From Patescibacteria group bacterium (lineage in GTDB: Bacteria > Patescibacteriota > Minisyncoccia > Phycocordibacterales > SIBU01), in assembly GCA_038063715.1 (NCBI GenBank), contig JBBTUO010000007.1:1540-65539 (forward strand): 64,000 nucleotides of DNA, in the 5' to 3' direction. The stretch's first letter is position 1; each line of letters starts with the position of its first letter. Positions 3,276 through 57,341 of the stretch are shown in pieces. The notes below the pieces were generated by a model. The model searched no databases and was not told the DNA's origin. It was given only the letters and a program-made list of their open reading frames with translations. A program made the position numbers and the translations under genes.

Positions 3276-4322
3276 ATGTCTAACCACAAAATAATAAGTG
3301 AGAAAAATTTGCCCGAATCGGAAGTTCAGTTTGATATTGAGATAGACCACCAGACTCTCGCAAAACACCGCACGTCTGGATTAAAAAGGCTTGCTTCAAC
3401 TGTATCGGTGCCAGGCTTTCGTGTTGGCCATGTACCAGAAAATATCGTAGTTCAAAAAGTTGGCGAGCAGGCAATTCTAAAAGAGGCAGCGTACGATGCT
3501 ATTGAAGAAGTGTTACCAGAAATAATAAAAGAGAAAAAAATTTCATCTGTAGGCGAACCCCAGATCTCGATCACTAAACTTGCAACTGGAAATCCTCTCG
3601 TCTTTACATTAGTGCTGTCACTATTTCCAGAAATTAATCTACCTGATTACAAAAAAATCGCGGGCACAGAAAACGCTAAAAAATTAGATGTAGGTGAAGT
3701 CTCTGAAAAAGAAGTAAACGATTTCATTGAAACAGTGCGTAAAAGCTTTGCACACAGCGTAGCGCCGAAGCATGAAGAAACGAAAGAACCTCATGAACAC
3801 CCTCTACCAGAACTGAACGACGAGTTTGTGAAGAAACTTGGTAACTTTAAGGATGTAGCCGATTTTAAAACAAAAATAAAAGAAAACCTCGGGCACGAAA
3901 AAACCCAAAAGGCCAAGGACAAGAAACGCCTCACCCTAGTCGAGGGCATCTTGGATAAAACCAAAATTACTGTACCAAAAGCGCTGATTGAAAATGAGCT
4001 AGTAAAAATGTTGGCACGGTTTCATGATGATGTAACGCGCATGGGAATGACCATGCCGGATTACTTGAAACAGATCAAAAAAACTGAGGATGACTTGAGG
4101 AAGGACTGGCGCAAAGATGCCGAGAAGCATGCCAAGCTTCAGCTCGTTCTAAGCTCAATCGCCGATAAAGAAAAAATTGAGGCTCCGGAAAACGAGGTAG
4201 GGCAGGAGGTGAAACACCTTACCGACGAACACAAAAATGTTGATCCTGTCCGTGCACGCGCCTACGTCACAATGATGCTCATCAACGAAAAAGTATTCGC
4301 ATTTCTGGAAGACCAGAAATAA
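3276..4322 (+). CDS. tig: Trigger factor-like chaperone (short form)
   Basis: The N-terminal ribosome-binding region (VPGFRVGHVPENIVVQKVGEQAILKEAAYDAIEEVL) resembles the tig signature GFRxGxxP. At 348 aa it is shorter than canonical trigger factor, so the PPIase domain is probably absent. Confidence 0.6.
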   Translation: MSNHKIISEKNLPESEVQFDIEIDHQTLAKHRTSGLKRLASTVSVPGFRVGHVPENIVVQKVGEQAILKEAAYDAIEEVLPEIIKEKKISSVGEPQISITKLATGNPLVFTLVLSLFPEINLPDYKKIAGTENAKKLDVGEVSEKEVNDFIETVRKSFAHSVAPKHEETKEPHEHPLPELNDEFVKKLGNFKDVADFKTKIKENLGHEKTQKAKDKKRLTLVEGILDKTKITVPKALIENELVKMLARFHDDVTRMGMTMPDYLKQIKKTEDDLRKDWRKDAEKHAKLQLVLSSIADKEKIEAPENEVGQEVKHLTDEHKNVDPVRARAYVTMMLINEKVFAFLEDQK

Positions 4323-4427
4323 ATAACTAATACCTAATTTCTAATTACCAAATGATGGGTTACCGAGAATCTAATTTGTGGCTTTAAGAATTATTTTAGA
4401 AATTGGAACTTAGAAATTAGAAATTAA

Positions 4428-4465
4428 GGGCGCCGGCAGAGACAATACTGCCGGCGCCCTTCTCG
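4428..4465 (+). terminator. Rho-independent terminator after tig
   Basis: GGGCGCCGGCAG-agacaatact-GCCGGCGCCC followed by TTCTCGCTT. Confidence 0.65.
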
Positions 4466-4980
4466 CTTGCCTAAACCAGGAAGCGGGTGTAGTGTTGTTT
4501 TCAGATCAAATCTTGGTGCGTTTGCCAAGGTTTAAACGCAACCAAACGTTGCACTGTATATGACAAGACTACTAATCTTCCTCATTGACGGACAAACTGG
4601 CGGAGTTGAAGTGGAGTTTGGGCCAGTAAAGGAGATGCGGAAAATGCTCCGAGCCCATCGAACCACAAAGGGCAACAATGCAATCGTGCACGAAGTCCGA
4701 GGCCCAGATATAAATATCAAAGCCCTAGATGTCCTTTGGACACTCCAACATGACCACCTGGAAGGGCGAGGCGAAAAGCCCGGAGGCCTGCAAAATCTGA
4801 TTCTGGACGTCTTCCTTCTTGGCGCCGAAAAAGGCGGAGAAATGCGGGCCGCCCTAAAAACTTCCACACTTCGTGTCGCAGGTGCCAGGATCCCGGGCTG
4901 GCGACGCAGGATTCCACGCTAACCAATAGTTCCTACACTCGCCCCGCTCACCCGAGCCGGGGCTTTTCTTTTGTCCTCAT
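4466..4980 (+). ncRNA. Candidate structured non-coding RNA region (identity unresolved)
   Basis: GC-elevated ~500-nt block. Overlapping ORFs on both strands (4560..4922 +, 4532..4867 -) with non-protein-like composition. Several local hairpins (GGTGCGTTT...AAACGCAACC, GCAAC-caaac-GTTGC). Ends in the hairpin GCCCCG...CGGGGC followed by TTTTCTTTT. A P4-like complementarity exists (GAAAAGCCCGG at ~4778 vs CCCGGGCTGG at ~4896), but the spacing is too short for RNase P. Confidence 0.25.
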
Positions 4981-4998
4981 AACCCTATTTTCTCTGTC

Positions 4999-5034
4999 TA
5001 CATAAATATTACGCTATAGCGTAATATTTATGTA
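4999..5034. repeat. Perfect 36-bp palindrome TACATAAATATTACGCTA|TAGCGTAATATTTATGTA (family core TACGCTATAGCGTA)
   Basis: Read directly from the sequence. Same core as the palindromes at 6964-7001 and 7589-7626. Confidence 0.85.
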
Positions 5035-5122
5035 TCTCCCTTTTTAAAAGGGCTGAATTGCAAGAAAATAAAATTAACATTCCGTCCATCAATCACATTG
5101 GTTAGTCTTTTCTTTCAAAACT

Positions 5123-5878
5123 CTAAGATTTCGGACACATGTCCCACATGTAATGAAACCATGTACGAAACGAGTCGGCCAAATTTTTATTTACAATAAC
5201 CGTAAATGTAATCTCTTCATCCGTTCCGATTTTTCCAATATATAAATGATGCAAAATATTTACGTGATCACCAAATATATCAACGCCTGAAGTGGTGGCA
5301 TATTTCTTCGGCAGAAATTTATAATGCTTTCCCACAGACCCGATAATCGGGTGTTTACTTTCTTTCACATCGTAATCAAACAAGTGGTGCATCTCAATTT
5401 TCCTACGCTTCATTTGTTCAAGAAACCCAGGGACAAATGATTTTACCCGATCATCTAGCCATGCTCCTTGTGCGGCAATAGAATAAAAAGGTTCACCGGT
5501 TTTTATAATATCTCTCATGTACTGCTTCCAACCCTCCTTCCCTTTGTATGTGCGCACTTGGTATTCCTCCGGCCGAGAAAAGTGTAATTTTTGCAATTCA
5601 GGCATCGCTGTGTCGAGCGCTTCAAATTTTTCCGCCAGCACCTCCGAGAGTTTTGTTGGCTCAACCGCCTGATACTTGTTTTCAAAAGACTCGACTATTT
5701 CAATGGCCAAGCCTTTTTCCATCAAGCGCTGTAAAGAATCGTACACATTCCTTCTGTGTACACCGGATTTTTTAGAAATGATCCCAACCCCCTGTTCCCC
5801 CATTTCAAGTAGGGTTTCGTATATTTTGGCCTCATTTTTAGCCAATCCTAGGCTCTGAAACAACTCTGTGTATTTCAT
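5123..5878 (-). CDS. TrmB-family transcriptional regulator (paralog 1)
   Basis: N-terminal wHTH LGLAKNEAKIYETLLEMGEQGVGIISKKSGVHRRNVYDSLQRLMEKGL, typical of TrmB. The C-terminal part is similar to paralogs at 13625-14362 and 24827-25642. Confidence 0.7.
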   Translation of the reverse strand: MKYTELFQSLGLAKNEAKIYETLLEMGEQGVGIISKKSGVHRRNVYDSLQRLMEKGLAIEIVESFENKYQAVEPTKLSEVLAEKFEALDTAMPELQKLHFSRPEEYQVRTYKGKEGWKQYMRDIIKTGEPFYSIAAQGAWLDDRVKSFVPGFLEQMKRRKIEMHHLFDYDVKESKHPIIGSVGKHYKFLPKKYATTSGVDIFGDHVNILHHLYIGKIGTDEEITFTVIVNKNLADSFRTWFHYMWDMCPKS

Positions 5879-6009
5879 ATATACCCACTATATACCGTCC
5901 TTTTGTTTTTGTAAAGGTGGTAACTCCCACTCGTGAGTGATATTTGCCACTCTTAAATAAAGGTATAGAGTGCCTTTCAGACAGAAACAATAAAAGAGAA
6001 AGTAGTCCT

Positions 6010-6543
6010 ATGAAACGAAATGATAATGAATTCAGCTTGTTCCTTGATAACGCGATATTCGCCAAGTATACCCGGAATAACACCTTTGCTAGAAAAATAG
6101 AGTGTGATCAGGCCAATGTGAGCCGCTGGCGGAGAGGTCTTCTTTTTCCACCAATTGTAAAACTCCCTATCATCGCAAAGGTGCTCAAAATTAGCCTCAA
6201 AGAACTCACACGCTTGTGGAAAACGCAAAAATATCCTGGATCAGCCACTGCTCATGAAAAAGTATCTGGATCATGTAAAGTGAAAGCTCGCTTGCTTCTT
6301 CACTTCTACGATGGGGAAAAGTTTCTGGGCCAAACGTTTCCAGAAGTCGAGGTGGCAAGTTGGGACGACCTGCAACAAGTGGTGATTGAAACCTACCCAG
6401 GCACAAAACGGAACCTTGATGGTATTCCGACCAAATTCTCGGGTGTTCCGATCTTGCTTCAACTACCCTCGTTGCGTGAAGGCTACGGCCCCAACACGAC
6501 CGTTCGAGTAATGCAGGTAATTCCAATGTCAAACCAAAACTGA
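6010..6543 (+). CDS. XRE-like helix-turn-helix domain protein
   Basis: HTH-like segment FAKYTRNNTFARKIECDQANVSRWRRG. The ATG at 6010 is the likely start; the ORF track begins at 5944. Confidence 0.5.
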   Translation: MKRNDNEFSLFLDNAIFAKYTRNNTFARKIECDQANVSRWRRGLLFPPIVKLPIIAKVLKISLKELTRLWKTQKYPGSATAHEKVSGSCKVKARLLLHFYDGEKFLGQTFPEVEVASWDDLQQVVIETYPGTKRNLDGIPTKFSGVPILLQLPSLREGYGPNTTVRVMQVIPMSNQN

Positions 6544-6551
6544 AAAACCGT

Positions 6552-6827
6552 ATGAAATTTATAAAAGAATACGCTTGCTTTGTTCTCATGGTGTTTCTAG
6601 CGGGTCGGTCATTGTATAAAGCGTTGTTACCTTCTGCTTTGATAAATCAGGAAGGTTTAGGTAGTCAGGCACTCTGGTTTGCAACCGCTCTCGCATGCTC
6701 CCTCACCGCGATATTCTGCGCCTTCACAAGTGCGCTATACAAAGTTATCGATGATGAAAAGAAAGAGCGCGCGCAAAATGCAGGAAACAATGCACCCTCG
6801 CGTCAGAAATCGAACATGCGCGAATAA
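6552..6827 (+). CDS. Hypothetical small membrane protein
   Basis: 91-aa ORF with two hydrophobic segments, immediately after the HTH gene. A terminator-like hairpin follows (~6843-6875). Confidence 0.3.
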   Translation: MKFIKEYACFVLMVFLAGRSLYKALLPSALINQEGLGSQALWFATALACSLTAIFCAFTSALYKVIDDEKKERAQNAGNNAPSRQKSNMRE

Positions 6828-6963
6828 GGTAAAAGTAAAACTAACAATAGGCGACCAGCAATGGCCGCCTTTTCTTTTATGCCGACAGAATGTACATCCC
6901 CCACTACACTCTATCTCCTGTTCCCTGTTCCTACCCCCTATCCACAGACCTCTATTTTCCTAC

Positions 6964-7001
6964 ATACATAAATCTTACGCTATAGCGTATAATTTATGTA
7001 T
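6964..7001. repeat. Imperfect ~38-bp palindrome ACATAAATCTTACGCTA|TAGCGTATAATTTATGT, overlapping the start codon of the downstream gene
   Basis: Core TACGCTATAGCGTATAATTT is identical to the downstream copy at 7601-7620. The ATG at 7000 lies in the right arm. Confidence 0.8.
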
Positions 7002-7566
7002 GGGAAAAATTGAAGAAGAATATCGCAAAAGACGCCGTAATGCCGAGATTCAGAAAGTTGTTCTTGGAACAATTGCGGTAGCGGGTGGTTTGAGCGTTTC
7101 CCTGCTGGCGCCGAATGCTCTGCAAGCATTAAAGATGCTTGGATTCAAAACAACTCGGCGAATTGAGTCAATAAAAGAAGCAAAAACGCGTCTGATCAGA
7201 GCTGGATTAATTTCTTACAACGGCAATGTTCTTTCACTGACGGCGAAAGGTGAAACAAAATTGTCCCTGCTGGAGCTAAATGAATATAAAATAAAAAAAC
7301 CGAAACGGTGGGACAAAAAATGGCGAGTTTTAATTTTTGATATCAGTGAGAGCAGAAAAACTTTGCGGGATAAGGTCAGAAGGACATTAATCGCCGTAGG
7401 TTTTATTCGACTTCAAGATAGCGTCTGGGTTTATCCCTATGACTGCGAAGATTTAATTGCTCTACTAAAGACTGATTTCAAAATCGGCAAGGAGTTGTTG
7501 TATATGATTGTCGACAGCATAGAAAACGACGAAATAATCAAAGAACAATTCGGCAGTATAAGTTAA
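7000..7566 (+). CDS. wHTH-like + Cas2/VapD-like domain protein (paralog 1), not in a CRISPR context
   Basis: 188 aa. The C-terminal half (KKWRVLIFDISESRKTLRDKVRRTLIAVGFIRLQDSVWVYPYDCEDLIALLK...LLYMIVD) resembles the Cas2 motif pattern (vLvvYDvs..krR.kv.k.L...G.RvQ.SVf.c.l). The N-terminal ~100 aa is basic and helix-rich (LLAPNAL...). The 295-aa ORF-track version, with its N-terminal extension through a terminator and palindrome, is rejected. Confidence 0.55.
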   Translation: MGKIEEEYRKRRRNAEIQKVVLGTIAVAGGLSVSLLAPNALQALKMLGFKTTRRIESIKEAKTRLIRAGLISYNGNVLSLTAKGETKLSLLELNEYKIKKPKRWDKKWRVLIFDISESRKTLRDKVRRTLIAVGFIRLQDSVWVYPYDCEDLIALLKTDFKIGKELLYMIVDSIENDEIIKEQFGSIS

Positions 7567-7588
7567 TATGAAAGCATCAAAAACCAAT

Positions 7589-7626
7589 ATACAGAAATTA
7601 TACGCTATAGCGTATAATTTCTGTAT
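7589..7626. repeat. Perfect 38-bp palindrome ATACAGAAATTATACGCTA|TAGCGTATAATTTCTGTAT
   Basis: Read directly. Third member of the TACGCTATAGCGTA family, 23 bp downstream of the wHTH-Cas2-like gene. Confidence 0.85.
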
Positions 7627-7687
7627 ATAATGTGTGGATGGATGCGGGCCTAAATTAAGCAGAACGCCTCCAATACAGTTTGAACTT

Positions 7688-8383
7688 TTACAATAAGAGG
7701 AGTGAGGCGACGGCGACTGCGGCGGTTTCGGCGCGGAGGATTTGAGTGCCGAGTGATAGGATTGGAATATTTTTTTCGCGAAACATTGCGAGCTCTTGGT
7801 CGGTGAAACCACCTTCTGGGCCGATGAATATGACGAGAGATTCATGATTTAGGATTTTAGATTCATGAAAGGAGGTGCCAGAGGGATCGAATGCAACTGC
7901 TGGAGCGGGTAGATCCGATAACGCTTTTTCTAGTGAAACCGGCTCAGAAAGTGTCGGTGCGATTCCCCTACCCGACTGTTCAGAAGATTCACGGACAATT
8001 TTTCCGGCACGAATAACATTAAACTTTTTCAAAATAGTTCTTTGAGTGGTCATCGGGCAAAAATGTGAAACGCCCAGCTCAGTCCCCTTTTCCAGAATCC
8101 ACTCAAATTTATCTGGCTTGATCAGCGACTGAAACAAAAAGATTTCTGACTTCGGTGCAAACATATTCTTTCTTTTTTCGAGAATCACTAGCTCCGCTTT
8201 TAAATAAGTAAGCTCGGTAAATTGCGCGGTGTATTCAAAACCGGAATTATCAAAAAGAATAACCGAACTTCCGGTGTTAAGCCGAAGGACATGTCGCCAC
8301 TGACTGAGCAAATCCGACCCCTCGATTGTGATGTGGTGCTGATCACCAATTGTCTGTTCTATAAAAAAATTGTGAAGTCGCAT
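7688..8383 (-). CDS. rsmE: 16S rRNA (uracil1498-N3)-methyltransferase RsmE
   Basis: C-terminal motif FIGPEGGFTDQELAMFREKNIPILSLGTQILRAETAAVAVASL, typical of RsmE. The start is probably MRLHNFF at 8383 rather than the ORF-track 8446. Confidence 0.75.
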   Translation of the reverse strand: MRLHNFFIEQTIGDQHHITIEGSDLLSQWRHVLRLNTGSSVILFDNSGFEYTAQFTELTYLKAELVILEKRKNMFAPKSEIFLFQSLIKPDKFEWILEKGTELGVSHFCPMTTQRTILKKFNVIRAGKIVRESSEQSGRGIAPTLSEPVSLEKALSDLPAPAVAFDPSGTSFHESKILNHESLVIFIGPEGGFTDQELAMFREKNIPILSLGTQILRAETAAVAVASLLLL

Positions 8384-8476
8384 AATCAAGAGTATATAGT
8401 ATTTTGTATATAGTATGAAGTATTGATAAAAAGAAAAGCCCGACACAGAAGTGCGGGCCTACTAGAAAACTAAACA

Positions 8477-18231: not shown

Positions 18232-18354
18232 TTAATTAATATACATTACATCATATATAGCAAAACATACCTTGCTGCCTATAAACTTTAGTTCAGTAAA
18301 GTAACCAAGATTATATTTTTTCTGTTTAAATTTTGAAATGCATGTATAAAAAAC

Positions 18355-19413: not shown

Positions 19414-19478
19414 AAAATTATATGCTTATATTAACAATTAGCGCATTTATGAACAAGGTTTCGCAGGTTTAGCAAATT

Positions 19479-19496
19479 ACTTTAGTTAACTAAAGT
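19479..19496. repeat. Perfect palindrome ACTTTAGTTAACTAAAGT (copy 1 of 3)
   Basis: Read directly. Lies in the purD / PRT-domain gene intergenic region. Confidence 0.8.
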
Positions 19497-19506
19497 GGAA
19501 AAATTT

Positions 19507-27270: not shown

Positions 27271-27300
27271 CCTCGCAAGCAATTGCGAGGTTTTTCTTTT
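27271..27300 (+). terminator. Rho-independent terminator after the radical SAM gene
   Basis: CCTCGCAA-gcaa-TTGCGAGG followed by TTTTTCTTTT. Confidence 0.7.
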
Positions 27301-27303
27301 GCC

Positions 27304-27388
27304 CAGTTTTGCCCGCGCTACTCCGTGGTCGCAACAACTGAGGCCGTCGCACATACCTCTTTATCCATGGTTCGACGCAACTTGATCA
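27304..27388 (+). repeat. ~85-bp double-hairpin repeat, copy A (diverged)
   Basis: TTTTGCCCGCGCTACTCCGTGGTCGCAACAACTGAGGCCGTCGCAC...CGACGCAACTTGA. Aligns with copies at 29215-29300, 29366-29410, 34950-35010 and 42725-42815 (reverse orientation). Confidence 0.7.
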
Positions 27389-27396
27389 GAACCATT

Positions 27397-27416
27397 TACT
27401 TTAGTTAACTAAAGTA
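27397..27416. repeat. Perfect palindrome TACTTTAGTTAACTAAAGTA (copy 2 of 3)
   Basis: Read directly. Confidence 0.8.
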
Positions 27417-29130: not shown

Positions 29131-29152
29131 ATTTCACTGGTATTTTAACCCA

Positions 29153-29182
29153 CCAGCTACTTTAGTTAACTAAAGTAGCTGG
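29153..29182. repeat. Perfect 30-bp palindrome CCAGCTACTTTAGTTAACTAAAGTAGCTGG (copy 3 of 3)
   Basis: Read directly. Begins 23 bp after the stop of the upstream gene. Confidence 0.85.
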
Positions 29183-29214
29183 GGAATGAGTTTGTATTTA
29201 TTTTTTCCCGACTT

Positions 29215-29300
29215 TCCCAATTTTGCCCACGGTACTCCGTGGTTGCAACAATTGCGGACGTCGCACCCCTCTGTTTCCGCAGCGCGACGCAAACTTGAGA
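29215..29300 (+). repeat. ~85-bp double-hairpin repeat, copy B (best-preserved)
   Basis: CCCAATTTTGCCCACGGTACTCCGTGGTTGCAACAATTGCGGACGTCGCACCCCTCTGTTTCCGCAGCGCGACGCAAACTTGAGAG. Hairpin 1 is CCACGG-tact-CCGTGG. Hairpin 2 is GACGTCGC...GCGCGACG. Confidence 0.8.
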
Positions 29301-29365: not shown

Positions 29366-29410
29366 GTGCAATTTTGCCCACGGTACCCCGTGGTTGCCAC
29401 AATTGATCCC
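29366..29410 (+). repeat. Partial copy (hairpin-1 half) of the ~85-bp repeat, copy B'
   Basis: GCAATTTTGCCCACGGTACCCCGTGGTTGCCACAATTGATCCC. Confidence 0.7.
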
Positions 29411-32393: not shown

Positions 32394-32439
32394 CCATATA
32401 CAGATATTACATGCGGTCGTGTATAATAGCTGTATATGG
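32394..32439. repeat. Palindromic element CCATATACAG...CATGCGGTCG...CTGTATATGG overlapping the start codon of the downstream gene
   Basis: Perfect 10-bp outer arms (CCATATACAG / CTGTATATGG). The inner core shares CATGCGGTCG with the downstream element at 33089-33126. The ATG at 32436 lies inside the right arm. Confidence 0.75.
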
Positions 32440-33002
32440 GAAATCTTGAAAAAGATTCGCGAAGACGAACGCGCAAAGGAAATATTGAGCGGGCCGTTCT
32501 CAACACCGTTGCGGCGGCGGGAGTGTTGAGTGTTGCACTGCTTGCCCCCAACGCACTCAAAATGCTTGGGGTAAAAAACTGGGCCGGATGGAGCCGACAA
32601 AAAGAGGGGGTGGCGGAAGCGAGAAAGCGACTGATAAAAAATGGTTTGCTGGAATATAAAAATAATTCCCTGATGGTAACCGTAAAAGGGGAAGCGAAGT
32701 TGCGACATCTTGAACTGCTGAATTTCAGATATCCAAAACCGAAGCGATGGGACAAAAAGTGGCGCCTGCTAATTTTTGATATTGCTGAGAGTAAACGAAT
32801 ATTGAGAGATAAAGTCAGATTAACTTTGCAAGCAATTGGTTTTGTAAAACTGCAACACAGTGTTTGGGCATATCCCTATAATTGCGAAGACCTGATTGCG
32901 CTTTTGAAAACCGATTTTCGTGTCGGCACTGATCTCTTGTACATCATTGCCGACAACGTTGAAAACGACGCGGTGTTGAAAAAATATTTTGGGTTGCAGT
33001 AA
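32436..33002 (+). CDS. wHTH-like + Cas2/VapD-like domain protein (paralog 2)
   Basis: Clear paralog of 7000-7566 (LLAPNAL, KRWDKKWRLLIFDIAESKRILRDKVRLTLQAIGFVKLQHSVWAYPYNCEDLIALLKTDF). Confidence 0.55.
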   Translation: MGNLEKDSRRRTRKGNIERAVLNTVAAAGVLSVALLAPNALKMLGVKNWAGWSRQKEGVAEARKRLIKNGLLEYKNNSLMVTVKGEAKLRHLELLNFRYPKPKRWDKKWRLLIFDIAESKRILRDKVRLTLQAIGFVKLQHSVWAYPYNCEDLIALLKTDFRVGTDLLYIIADNVENDAVLKKYFGLQ

Positions 33003-33088
33003 AAGGCACGTTCCAAGGTGTCGCGCGAACGGACAGGTAGAAACCGAGTAGAAGCTTGGATCTCTCTAAAAAACACAGAACTCCCCGT

Positions 33089-33126
33089 CTACAGACATTG
33101 CATGCGGTCGCATGTAATGTCTGTAG
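33089..33126. repeat. 38-bp palindrome CTACAGACATTGCATGCG-gt-CGCATGTAATGTCTGTAG (1 mismatch)
   Basis: Read directly. Followed by ATGGG as in the upstream copy. Lies 87 bp downstream of paralog 2. Confidence 0.8.
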
Positions 33127-33256
33127 ATGGGTGGGGGGGGTTGTAGCAGGGATAAGAGGTGTAGTAGGGACACTAGGCGTAACAAGGTAGAACGATTGTA
33201 GACAACTAGCGGGTAACAAAGACGGGGCGTTTTATTTTTTATTGTGGAAATCTCTT

Positions 33257-34174
33257 TTACCGTTTGCGATTATGGAAATTCTTATGAATCTCCCGCAGGC
33301 GGCTATCGGTAATATGCGTGTAAATCTGAGTGGTATTGATACTGGCGTGGCCGAGTAGCATTTGGACCGAGCGGATATCGGCGCCGTTAGAAAGAAGATC
33401 GGTGGCAAAGCAGTGGCGAATTACGTGTGGCGTCACTTTTTTGGAAATACCGGCCACAATCGCATAGTGCTTCACAAGCCTTTCTACTGATCGGCGAGTC
33501 AATCGCAAATCTTTTTTCGATGCCGGATCAACGCTTACCTGCACAAAAAGAGCGTCATCGACATCAGTGCGCTTGGCAACATACTGCTTGAGCGCCTGAC
33601 GAGCCGAGTCCGAAAGAAAGACCACCCGCACTTTTTCGCCCTTGCCTCGCACCGAAAATTCATCAGAACGCAGATCGAGGTCACGCGATAGGGAACAGAG
33701 CTCGGATACGCGGAGACCGGTTGAAAACAAAAGCTCCATGATAGCCCGATCACGAAGTGATTTTATGTCATCACCTTTCGGTGCATCCATCAATCTTCGC
33801 AGTTCATTTCCCGAAATGAGATCGAGTGCACGCTCAGAAGTTTTTGCCAGCTCAATATGTTCTGGCGAAATGGTTTTCACATCACGCTTAGCCAAATATT
33901 TCAAAAAAGCTCGCAAGGCGATTAGATAATAATTTTGGGTTTTCTTCTTGAGCGTGTCGCCGGTCGGCTTGTTGTTGCCGGTCGATTGGCGGTTGAGCCA
34001 GAGGCGATATTCGCGCAAAAGTTCATCCGTAATCTTGGCCGGATCGGTAATTTTGGCAAAAACTAGAAACCGCTTCAAGTAGTGGTCGTAATTTTCCACC
34101 GTTTTTACGCTTCGACCACGTTCGATTTCAATATATTCCAAAAATTCTTGTTTGAGAATCTTGAGGTCTTTCAT
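33257..34174 (-). CDS. Tyrosine recombinase, XerC/XerD / phage-integrase family
   Basis: N-terminal SAM-like domain (EFLEYIEIERGRSVKTVENYDHYLKRF). C-terminal catalytic residues in context (HVIRHCFATDLL, LLGHASINTTQIYTH). Confidence 0.85.
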   Translation of the reverse strand: MKDLKILKQEFLEYIEIERGRSVKTVENYDHYLKRFLVFAKITDPAKITDELLREYRLWLNRQSTGNNKPTGDTLKKKTQNYYLIALRAFLKYLAKRDVKTISPEHIELAKTSERALDLISGNELRRLMDAPKGDDIKSLRDRAIMELLFSTGLRVSELCSLSRDLDLRSDEFSVRGKGEKVRVVFLSDSARQALKQYVAKRTDVDDALFVQVSVDPASKKDLRLTRRSVERLVKHYAIVAGISKKVTPHVIRHCFATDLLSNGADIRSVQMLLGHASINTTQIYTHITDSRLREIHKNFHNRKR

Positions 34175-34916: not shown

Positions 34917-34950
34917 GCCGCTCGACGCACGTCGAGCGGCTTTTTCTTCT
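34917..34950 (+). terminator. Rho-independent terminator
   Basis: GCCGCTCGACG-cac-GTCGAGCGGC followed by TTTTTCTTCT. Confidence 0.7.
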
Positions 34951-35010
34951 CAATTTTTCTCACGGTACCCCGTGACTGAAAAATTGAGGACATCGCGCTT
35001 ACCGACTTCA
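34950..35010 (+). repeat. ~85-bp double-hairpin repeat, copy C (diverged)
   Basis: CAATTTTTCTCACGGTACCCCGTGACTGAAAAATTGAGGACATCGCGC...GCGATGCAAACT. Confidence 0.6.
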
Positions 35011-35115
35011 TACCTGGTGCGATGCAAACTAATTAGCTTTTAATCCTTTTAATTTTGTCGAAAGAAAAATGCCAGTTCCGGATTGCTCCGCGCTGGCATT
35101 TGAGAAGGAAATAGG

Positions 35116-39639: not shown

Positions 39640-39725
39640 TAATTTCTAAATTATAATTTCTAATTTCTAAAAACCCTAGGATCATTTGGAAATTTCATTA
39701 GATATTAGGACTTAGAAAGTAGAAA
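39640..39725. repeat. AT-rich intergenic element with inverted termini (AATTTCTAAATTATAATTTCTAATTTCTAAA ... TTAGAAAGTAGAAATTTAT)
   Basis: The left 30 nt is identical to the copy at 41072-41105. Right halves are similar. Related copies at ~4335-4420, ~46370-46410, ~57215-57300 and ~9140-9180. Confidence 0.7.
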
Positions 39726-41069: not shown

Positions 41070-41155
41070 CTTTATTAATTTCTAAATTATAATTTCTAAT
41101 TTCTAAACCGGAGTCAAATTCGAATTTTATTAGACATTAGTAATTAGAAATTTAT
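41070..41155. repeat. AT-rich intergenic element, copy near-identical to 39640-39725
   Basis: ATTAATTTCTAAATTATAATTTCTAATTTCTAAA...TATTAGACATTAGTAATTAGAAATTTAT. Confidence 0.7.
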
Positions 41156-42724: not shown

Positions 42725-42815
42725 CAAAATGGGTTTACGTCGCGCTGCGGCAACAGAGGAGGCGCGACGTCCTCAATTGTTGCAACCGCGGAGTACCGTG
42801 GGCAAAATTGGGAAC
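42725..42815 (-). repeat. ~85-bp double-hairpin repeat, copy D (reverse orientation)
   Basis: The reverse complement is GTTCCCAATTTTGCCCACGGTACTCCGCGGTTGCAACAATTGAGGACGTCGCGCCTCCTCTGTTGCCGCAGCGCGACGTAAACCC, about 90% identical to copy B. Confidence 0.8.
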
Positions 42816-42903
42816 AAAAACCGCCCGGCTTTCGGGGGTTTTATTCTTAAATCCTAAATCTAAAATCTTGAATCCGAATCCGTTTTAGTACACCCTTGGC
42901 GTA

Positions 42904-57208: not shown

Positions 57209-57341
57209 ACACAAAGGTGCATGCGTCAATTTCTAAGTCCTAATATCTAATTTCTAATCAAAGATCTGGGTTAGATATTAGAAATTATAATTTAGAAATT
57301 TTGCACAATTCACCAGTAGATATATCTGATATAATAAATCA

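Follow-up and report, generated by a model that had tools for sequence, protein, structure and literature searches.

Autoregulated winged helix-turn-helix (wHTH) repressors with auxiliary operators are well known, e.g., from MarR-type proteins and from the lac, gal and deo looping systems. The described proteins closest to the one treated here, PaaX of Escherichia coli and Pseudomonas (PDB 8a39, 3l09) and also Rv0674 (3kfw), combine an N-terminal wHTH with a Cas2-like domain (PF20803), which in PaaX is followed by a C-terminal helical effector domain binding phenylacetyl-CoA. The operator of E. coli PaaX, TGATTC-N27-GAATCA, spans 39 bp, and the protein acts as repressor of its own Px promoter through steric hindrance (PMC9493321). 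A gene flanked by cognate palindromes, with several such gene-palindrome pairs per genome, has likewise been described for RAYT genes and REPINs (PMC3337134).

We analyzed a 64-kb stretch of DNA (the window) in which a gene at 7000-7566 on the plus strand, here called mini-PaaX, is bracketed by long palindromes; the source organisms are tiny groundwater bacteria (Patescibacteria). On evidence that is comparative throughout and stems from metagenome-assembled genomes (MAGs) with predicted gene starts, mini-PaaX is probably a PaaX-type autorepressor without effector domain, which is bracketed by its own operators and whose Cas2-like domain shares in operator recognition. The features of this locus (locus 1) are as follows.

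7000-7566, plus strand: mini-PaaX gene, wHTH and Cas2-like domain, 188 amino acids (aa), without the C-terminal effector domain of PaaX
7150-7200, plus strand: predicted recognition helix (codons 51-67, AlphaFold2 secondary structure); R53, E56 and E60 covary with operator positions 16, 17 and 14
7300-7563, plus strand: Cas2-like ferredoxin-fold domain (codons 101-188), with D114 (7339-7341) and D140 (7417-7419) inside
4999-5034, no strand: P1, perfect 36-bp palindrome of the locus-1 type, a promoter-less "orphan" site
6964-7001, no strand: P2, 38-bp palindrome with two mismatched pairs, putative upstream operator (U site), covering the -10 box and the start codon
6988-6993, plus strand: TATAAT -10 hexamer in the right arm of P2, 6 nt before the ATG, read from the sequence
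7587-7628, no strand: P3, perfect 42-bp palindrome beginning 20 bp past the stop codon, putative downstream operator (D site)

A preliminary description of this DNA had placed the 188-aa gene and the palindromes at these positions, where we found them as well. The final two bases of P2 are the AT of the ATG at 7000, so this site does overlap the start codon, as had been claimed. P3, given there as 7589-7626, is indeed perfect and begins in that form 23 bp after the stop codon, whereas its true perfect symmetry extends to 7587-7628. The 14-mer TACGCTATAGCGTA is common to P1, P2 and P3 and occurs three times in the 64 kb (mean of 0.07 in shuffled sequence; 0 of 100 shuffles reached three). Of the common core described earlier, these 14 bp are present in all three sites, but P1 lacks the full 20-mer.

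Architecture and family of mini-PaaX

The sole Pfam match of the protein is PF20803 (PaaX_M, "central Cas2-like domain"; E 2.7e-19, and E 3.9e-18 for paralogue 2 of the window, listed below). Among the NCBIfam models, TIGR01573 (cas2) is reached with 26.5 bits against a cut-off of 24.5, and TIGR02277 (PaaX) aligns partially, at residues 62-156, with 31 bits against a cut-off of 264.55. A profile alignment to PDB entry 3kfw covers residues 58-149, and the N-terminal PaaX Pfam model gave no match at E<=1. In an AlphaFold2 model of moderate confidence (pLDDT 72.7), the wHTH is formed by helices 3-28, 38-46 and 51-67 with a wing at 71-80, and C-terminal to it residues 108-171 adopt a beta-alpha-beta-beta-alpha-beta topology. 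Foldseek returned E. coli PaaX (8a39) and Rv0674 (3kfw) as top PDB matches, followed by many Cas2 chains with probabilities of 0.99-1.00. The Cas2-like nature of the C-terminal half, which had first been proposed from a motif pattern, is thus borne out by PF20803, TIGR01573, the predicted topology and the structural matches.

Like CRISPR Cas2, the domain is of the dimer-forming, ferredoxin-like kind and retains the Cas2 hallmarks, i.e., FDI in beta1 ((F/Y)DI in Cas2) and RLQxSVW in beta2-beta3 (RxQxSV(W/F)). D114, the counterpart of the catalytic Asp in beta1 of Cas2, is invariant in 81 of 81 sequences, whereas the aligned beta1 of Rv0674 lacks an Asp. The protein differs from CRISPR Cas2 in being a wHTH fusion, never found beside cas1 or an array in the loci examined, and from PaaX in ending at residue 188, directly after the Cas2-like domain. 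Mini-PaaX sits between the two, with the PaaX architecture and the Cas2 motifs kept, and this intermediate position would bear on the origin of Cas2. We regard the product of 7000-7566 as most likely a two-domain PaaX-like transcription factor and member of a large paralogue family in Patescibacteria (Paceibacteria).

A search of cluster representatives yielded 3054 clusters at E<=1e-3 and 171 at E<=1e-30, the best 150 representatives all measuring about 180-215 aa. The named members come from MAGs of Patescibacteria/Paceibacteria, and several paralogues occur per genome (one MAG supplies three contigs to the top 80 loci; two copies in the window). In these organisms with very few known regulators, mini-PaaX may be one of the main expanded transcription-factor families. 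PGAP and IMG label many members "CRISPR-associated endonuclease Cas2", the prevailing label for members with a name in public sources, since the TIGR01573 score just exceeds its cut-off; a CRISPR link was seen in 0 of 82 loci examined, which corrects this annotation error. The preliminary description had further held that this is not a standard annotated system. This goes too far, as the domain is already in Pfam as PaaX_M, its closest structural counterpart is the known repressor PaaX and the E. coli PaaX operator shares the long-range geometry; literature searches for mini-PaaX-like proteins (PaaX or HTH with Cas2; Cas2 palindromes in Patescibacteria) returned nothing on the family.

The locus set comprised 80 loci from other genomes and the two of the window, of which 81 were analyzed. 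One locus (L001, CAYGHQ010000085.1) was left out, its contig being a perfect 3154-bp palindrome (hairpin) with two inverted mini-PaaX copies and almost certainly an assembly or amplification artefact. Housekeeping genes surround the 80 loci in several conserved gene orders, namely glyA / mini-PaaX - thyA - folA, recJ - mini-PaaX - rnhA - comEC, mini-PaaX / topA, mini-PaaX / rbfA - infB, mini-PaaX / rnc - nusB and glyS - mini-PaaX - M16 peptidase. By this conserved synteny, the paralogues are old and stably placed. No paa catabolic genes were found among the neighbors of the examined loci, a further difference from PaaX.

A selfish or addiction-like cassette delimited by the palindromes, as considered in the preliminary description, is at odds with the housekeeping synteny in many lineages, the absence of relatives among the viral contigs searched and the lack of a compositional island. 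A mobile island was likewise rejected, there being no compositional anomaly across P1-P3, no viral-contig relatives and no PHROG matches. A type II toxin-antitoxin or addiction module was rejected as well, in view of the single gene, the lack of a conserved partner and the syntenic placement.

Cognate operators and their covariation with the protein

Such flanking palindromes are common at homologs in other genomes, too. A D-side palindrome (at least 13 pairs, about 0-120 bp past the stop codon) was present in 47 of 81 loci, and 38 of 81 carried a palindrome at or upstream of the start, 22 of these 38 ending at most 8 nt from the ATG. The presence of a D site was independent of the orientation of the downstream gene (20/38 versus 23/38). 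Just two kinds of center occur, nCTATAGn in 34 loci and CGRYCG in 22 loci. The half-site consensus, read outward from the dyad, is TAG-CGT-A..ATT..-TGTAT, with the center and positions 15-19 conserved and the stretch between them variable, which amounts to an operator grammar of dyad center, variable arm and TGTAT end. Mismatches between arms concentrate at positions 5-9 and beyond 19, while positions 1-4 and 10-19 are almost never mismatched.

Sites of one locus resemble each other: U and D share 8.8 of 11 variable positions within a locus versus 4.4 of 11 between loci, and for 20 of 28 U sites the best match was the D site of the same locus. Where cognate copies differ, they do so in mirrored fashion, as in P1 versus P3 (three positions per arm, altered symmetrically in both arms) and in the U and D sites of L028 (two positions, again in both arms). 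Compared to the PaaX operator, the arrangement of two inverted half-sites is retained at nearly the same distance (ATACA-N28-TGTAT, 38 bp, with TGTAT at positions 15-19, versus N27). In contrast to PaaX, palindromic symmetry runs through all 38 bp, the "spacer" included, the operator center varies in step with the Cas2-like domain, another cognate site is located past the stop codon, and several paralogues per genome each have their own operator type.

Mutual information, computed in 57 loci for every pairing of a protein column with a half-site position, singled out residues 53, 56 and 60, which lie on one face of the predicted recognition helix. Residue 60 varies with base 14 (Arg with G in 18/19 loci, Glu with C in 3/3, including both paralogues of the window, Ser with A in 6/7, Leu with T in 3/3 and Asn with T in 4/6; z 9.1, nearest-neighbor contrast p=0.007), and residues 53 and 56 vary together with bases 16 and 17 (R/E with GT; N with R or Y with C), the contrast of both residues against base 16 giving p=2e-4. 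These nearest-neighbor contrasts are a partial control for phylogeny; control pairs were mostly not significant, yet residue 86 and base 14, for which no contact is predicted, also gave p=0.007. The pairings agree with well-known amino-acid-to-base preferences.

A further signal comes from the Cas2-like domain itself. Residue 140, located in the LQ-x-SVW hairpin, is Asp in 34 of 34 loci with a CTATAG center, and Asn, Lys or His occur at this position only together with CGRYCG centers, in about ten separate clades of a neighbor-joining (NJ) tree; Asp140 and CGRYCG are combined in six loci (contrast of residue 140 and center, p=0.04). The window follows this rule, with D140 and CTATAG for paralogue 1 and H140 and CGGTCG for paralogue 2. 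With residues 53, 56, 60 and 140 all covarying with the operator across the 57 loci, the earlier proposal that the protein recognizes its own flanking palindromes is very probably correct. There is strong comparative evidence for a dimer that would read the arm ends by its winged helices and the dyad by its Cas2-like domain, which, in contrast to CRISPR Cas2, appears to add sequence-specific contacts at the operator dyad. This suggests that a Cas2-fold domain can share in sequence-specific DNA recognition. It would also offer a readable code (residue 60 for base 14, residues 53 and 56 for bases 16 and 17, residue 140 for the center), so that cognate sites could be predicted from sequence.

The start-proximal sites have the geometry of an autoregulated promoter, in agreement with the autoregulation suggested in the preliminary description. 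The family consensus of the gene-facing half of U sites is TAGCGTATAATTnnTGTATGGG. TATAAT is fixed at positions 6-11 of this arm in U sites only (mean match of 4.95/6 versus 3.1-3.7 at other sites, i.e., D sites and orphans), and the ATG falls at positions 18-20, leaving 6 nt between hexamer and ATG at locus 1 and 8 nt at locus 2. No Shine-Dalgarno sequence was found at loci 1 and 2. In the metagenome scan described below, the ATG lay exactly at the TGT/ATG junction in 14 of 23 start-associated sites. We infer from this that the mRNA has no leader or hardly any and that its -10 box and start lie inside the operator, such that occupancy would cause autorepression. In L078 (3700-3741), the M16-peptidase gene beyond mini-PaaX shows TTGATA-N18-TATATT with an ATG 6 nt later, and leaderless starts are thus perhaps common in these genomes and not specific to mini-PaaX.

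Scanning metagenomes with the pattern ATACA-N8-ACGCTATAGCGT-N8-TGTAT gave 120 sites on 113 contigs. Among the 92 decidable sites, 23 lay at the start of a family gene, nine just past its stop codon and 60 had no family gene nearby; such orphans were defined by at least 750 bp on both sides and no family gene nearby by tblastn or HMM. The palindromes can hence not be called dedicated to the gene, as the preliminary description had it. Orphans were intergenic in 56 of 59 cases and had varied housekeeping genes as neighbors, the adjoining genes being co-directional for 31 orphans, convergent for 17 and divergent for 8. Like the D sites, orphans lack a T-tract behind them. D and orphan sites were rejected as leaderless promoters of other genes, their -10 match being background-like and unoriented; only 6 of 212 half-sites start an open reading frame (ORF) of at least 60 aa, and those ORFs are apparently spurious. 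Some orphan positions are seen repeatedly: a palindrome about 90 nt upstream of the M16-peptidase gene or operon is a D site in L078 and an orphan in L120. We conclude that each paralogue has a handful of cognate sites beyond its own promoter, which may act as roadblock, insulator, auxiliary operator or decoy. The promoter-less sites past stop codons hint at an undescribed regulatory or insulating device.

The window itself holds 21 long palindromes versus 1-2 in simulated sequence. They split in two classes, GC-rich hairpins with T-runs, i.e., ordinary terminators, and AT-rich palindromes with a "loop" of 0-2 nt and arms of 18-22 nt. A symmetry scan of all CTATAG and CGRYCG centers found exactly six sites with 12-16 of 16 pairs (the remaining 53 have at most eight): P1-P3, P5 and P6 around paralogue 2, and the orphan P4, with at most three sites per type.

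32436-33002, plus strand: mini-PaaX paralogue 2, 188 aa, 58% identical to the locus-1 protein, H at position 140
32396-32437, no strand: P5, U site of paralogue 2, imperfect palindrome with center CGGTCG; TATAAT at 32422-32427, ATG at 32436
33084-33131, no strand: P6, D site of paralogue 2, 81 bp past the stop codon
17865-17910, no strand: P4, orphan palindrome of the same architecture and a third type, GTATACGTTTATAATACACG-AC-CGTGTATTATAAACGTATAC, center CGACCG

The palindromes of paralogue 2 have CGRYCG centers and a core different from that of P1-P3. For the P4 type, no cognate gene was found in the 64-kb window.

Autorepression and its alternatives

In the mechanism we favor, a homodimer joined via the Cas2-like domain would lie along the palindrome of about 38 bp. 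Each recognition helix would read approximately positions 14-17 from the dyad (the conserved TGTAT and the variable base), and the beta2-beta3 hairpin (LQ-x-SVW) of the Cas2-like domain would read or constrain the central 6 bp. As the U site holds the gene's own -10 box and start codon, its occupancy would block RNA polymerase and thereby repress a leaderless mRNA, like PaaX at Px; the U-site geometry implies the same self-repression by occlusion. Further targets of the same protein would be the more perfect site past the stop codon and a small number of scattered cognate sites (P1 at this locus). All of these are promoter-less and most likely lie between the regulator gene and neighboring housekeeping operons as roadblocks, insulators or auxiliary operators. 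In general terms this resembles the MarR-type, lac, gal and deo systems, where a dimer sits on a palindrome over its own -10 box and transcription start and an extra operator lies downstream. The mini-PaaX operator is about twice as long, and the auxiliary operator follows the stop codon instead of lying inside or before the gene. For the U-D distances of 604-714 bp no helical phasing was found, a test that at about 650 bp is uninformative on DNA looping.

Several observations weigh against autorepression as the full account. No part of the protein is more conserved than the Cas2-like domain, whose many invariant charged residues, including the Cas2 catalytic Asp, exceed what a simple dimerization module needs. 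A generic sigma-70 scan calls no promoter at P2, as there is no good -35 element, and D and orphan sites have neither a -10 box nor an orientation toward gene starts. No promoter is expected at the 17 of 56 intergenic orphans in convergent settings, so a classical promoter-operator role cannot explain them. Palindromy also reaches beyond position 19, with at least four extra pairs in 15 of 101 distinct sites versus 0.5 expected, and these extensions vary among copies of one 38-mer, which dimer symmetry alone does not predict. About one third of the loci have no clear palindrome at the thresholds used, and the covariation tests rest on an NJ tree and 57 loci, not on a full phylogenetic model.

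Part of this would be accounted for by a system akin to repetitive extragenic palindromic (REP) elements or REPINs with their RAYT genes, which we consider unlikely. An active Cas2-like nuclease would nick or cut the palindromes, maybe as hairpins or cruciforms, and thereby spread or homogenize them, with autoregulation being secondary and each vertically inherited paralogue maintaining its own small population of cognate palindromes. Points of likeness are a short gene with cognate palindromes on both sides, several such pairs within a genome, vertical inheritance, and dispersed orphans that are almost always intergenic and tend toward 3' ends. Moreover, a 38-bp palindrome, ATACACCTATCAYACGCTATAGCGTRTGATAGGTGTAT, recurs unchanged in five intergenic contexts that are unrelated to one another (L085, L097, L108, L111, L139 and duplicates); similarity ends exactly at the palindrome, and the palindromic extensions, of 0-7 bp, differ from copy to copy. 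Symmetry in excess of the recognized motif, the mirrored differences between cognate copies, the invariant beta1 Asp with many further polar residues, and the folding of all six window sites into strong single-strand hairpins point in the same direction.

The copy number is low, however, with six sites of all types in 64 kb, at most three per type, and about 1-3 orphans per gene as suggested by the metagenome scan. Neither an HUH-Y1 (IS200-like) nor another transposase domain is present (Pfam and NCBIfam gave PaaX_M and Cas2 only), the sites are perfect single palindromes instead of REP doublets, and one copy doubles as promoter. The covarying residues fit readout of the duplex major groove by the wHTH, and template-switch mutation of quasipalindromes, an established process, could yield the perfect and extended symmetry without any enzyme.

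A related proposal sees the Cas2-like domain as a sequence-guided nuclease, whose dimer-interface Asp would be set by the winged helices over the CTATAG or CGRYCG dyad and would nick or resolve the palindrome, possibly as a cruciform. We give it a small chance only. The nuclease reading would account for the invariant acidic and basic residues, the extended palindromy and the identical 38-mers in unrelated contexts, none of which follows from a plain operator model, and the invariance of D114 is compatible with it. If true, it would describe a new non-HUH analog of REPIN-RAYT or a palindrome-maintenance or recombination system, and a living intermediate between PaaX-type regulators and CRISPR Cas2.

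It is quite improbable that the palindromes are autonomous hairpins, i.e., transcription terminators or 3'-end mRNA stabilizers, which the protein does not read and whose adjacency to the gene is incidental or derived from duplication. P1, P3, P4 and P6 do all lie between convergent 3' ends, a terminator scan weakly flags P3 (minus strand) and P1 (plus strand), the median distance of orphans is 42 nt from the upstream stop codon versus 87 nt from the next start codon, and a T-run follows the downstream copy in L044. On the other hand, just 4 of 47 D sites have a T-tract behind them when read on the plus strand, and 8 of 47 when read on the minus strand, the background being 6%. Genuine terminators of the window are GC-rich hairpins with T-runs, whereas the palindrome stems are AT-rich, and mismatches of the G.T type (G.U in RNA) show no strand bias (25 versus 18). 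On these three grounds ordinary intrinsic terminators were rejected. The hairpin explanation also leaves the covariation with protein residues and the fixed TATAAT-ATG geometry of U sites unexplained.

A remnant of CRISPR adaptation, a stand-alone true Cas2 or a toxin-like Cas2/VapD addiction module, to which the PGAP and IMG names, the TIGR01573 score and partial Cas2 matches in PADLOC might point, has a close to negligible probability, as the matches span only about 40 Cas2 residues, the wHTH fusion has PaaX as its best structural match, viral contigs hold no relatives, and neither cas1, an array nor a conserved defense or partner gene accompanies it among the housekeeping neighbors in the window (where no Cas1-model scan was made) or in the 80 loci. 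The lack of CRISPR company noted in the preliminary description accordingly holds, with no array-like repeats in the window and no recurrent cas neighbor in the 80 loci, and membership in a defense system was rejected, since PADLOC gives partial Cas2 matches only.

Surroundings of the sites and further repeats

P1 lies 88 bp beyond the stop codon of a minus-strand TrmB-like gene and directly after the terminator of the upstream plus-strand unit. The preliminary description had it upstream of this regulator; with the gene on the minus strand, it is on the 3' side. The TrmB-like wHTH regulator (5123-5878, minus strand; Pfam TrmB, E 5.8e-16) adjoins mini-PaaX in 4 of 82 loci (five gene copies; including L036, L059 and L069), an adjacency that may reflect synteny or a functional pairing. 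The XRE HTH label earlier given to 6010-6543 is weak, with no Pfam match and only NCBIfam RstR (E 0.011) and phrog_8 (E 0.0013). In a relative (L091), 72% identical and orthologous to window 4060-5035, the P1 position is occupied by a palindrome as well; its contig ends 47 nt further on, which limits a comparison for presence or absence of the P1-P2 segment. The exact P1 38-mer was found in a different context in a closely related population (L098, L105).

P3 sits between the convergent genes for mini-PaaX and an RsmE-type methyltransferase (7688-8446, minus strand; Pfam Methyltrans_RNA). P4 lies between convergent genes for a trypsin-like peptidase and an RNHCP protein, and directly beyond P6 follows a convergent tyrosine-recombinase gene (33257-34174; Phage_integrase, E 1e-44). 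In L044, a shared T-rich stretch and a tRNA-like segment (tRNA-Leu, minus strand, 1177-1259) come after both a third and the downstream palindrome copy (1000-1260 and 2048-2300). The gene thus lies between the copies of a direct repeat, which at about 250 bp extends beyond the palindrome alone.

Next to P1, the segment 4470-4975 is GC-rich (GC 0.52 versus 0.44 for the window). It holds an ORF at 4560-4922 (plus strand), whose protein is 70% identical in the orthologous contig L091 and which is followed, directly before P1, by a clean GC hairpin with T-run terminator. This ORF segment gave no Pfam or Rfam match, and screening of 4300-5100 for known RNAs yielded no credible Rfam match.

Three further repeat families were noticed in the window. 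A dispersed repeat of about 40-110 bp with CAATTTTGCCCACGGTACTCCGTGGTTGCAACAATTG occurs in at least five copies and both orientations (27297-27380, 29213-29295, 29369-29406, 34942-35052 and 42752-42822), with several copies of 80-96% identity on related Hainich groundwater contigs (L098, L105), and may be a MITE- (miniature inverted-repeat transposable element) or REP-like element. A different 20-bp palindrome, TACTTTAGTTAACTAAAGTA, is present in four intergenic copies (18278-18303, 19472-19497, 27391-27416 and 29152-29177) and is probably the operator of another regulator. AT-rich repeats of the TAATTTCTAA type, both direct and inverted, are found in several intergenic regions, including 39640-39671, 41076-41107 and 57227-57300.

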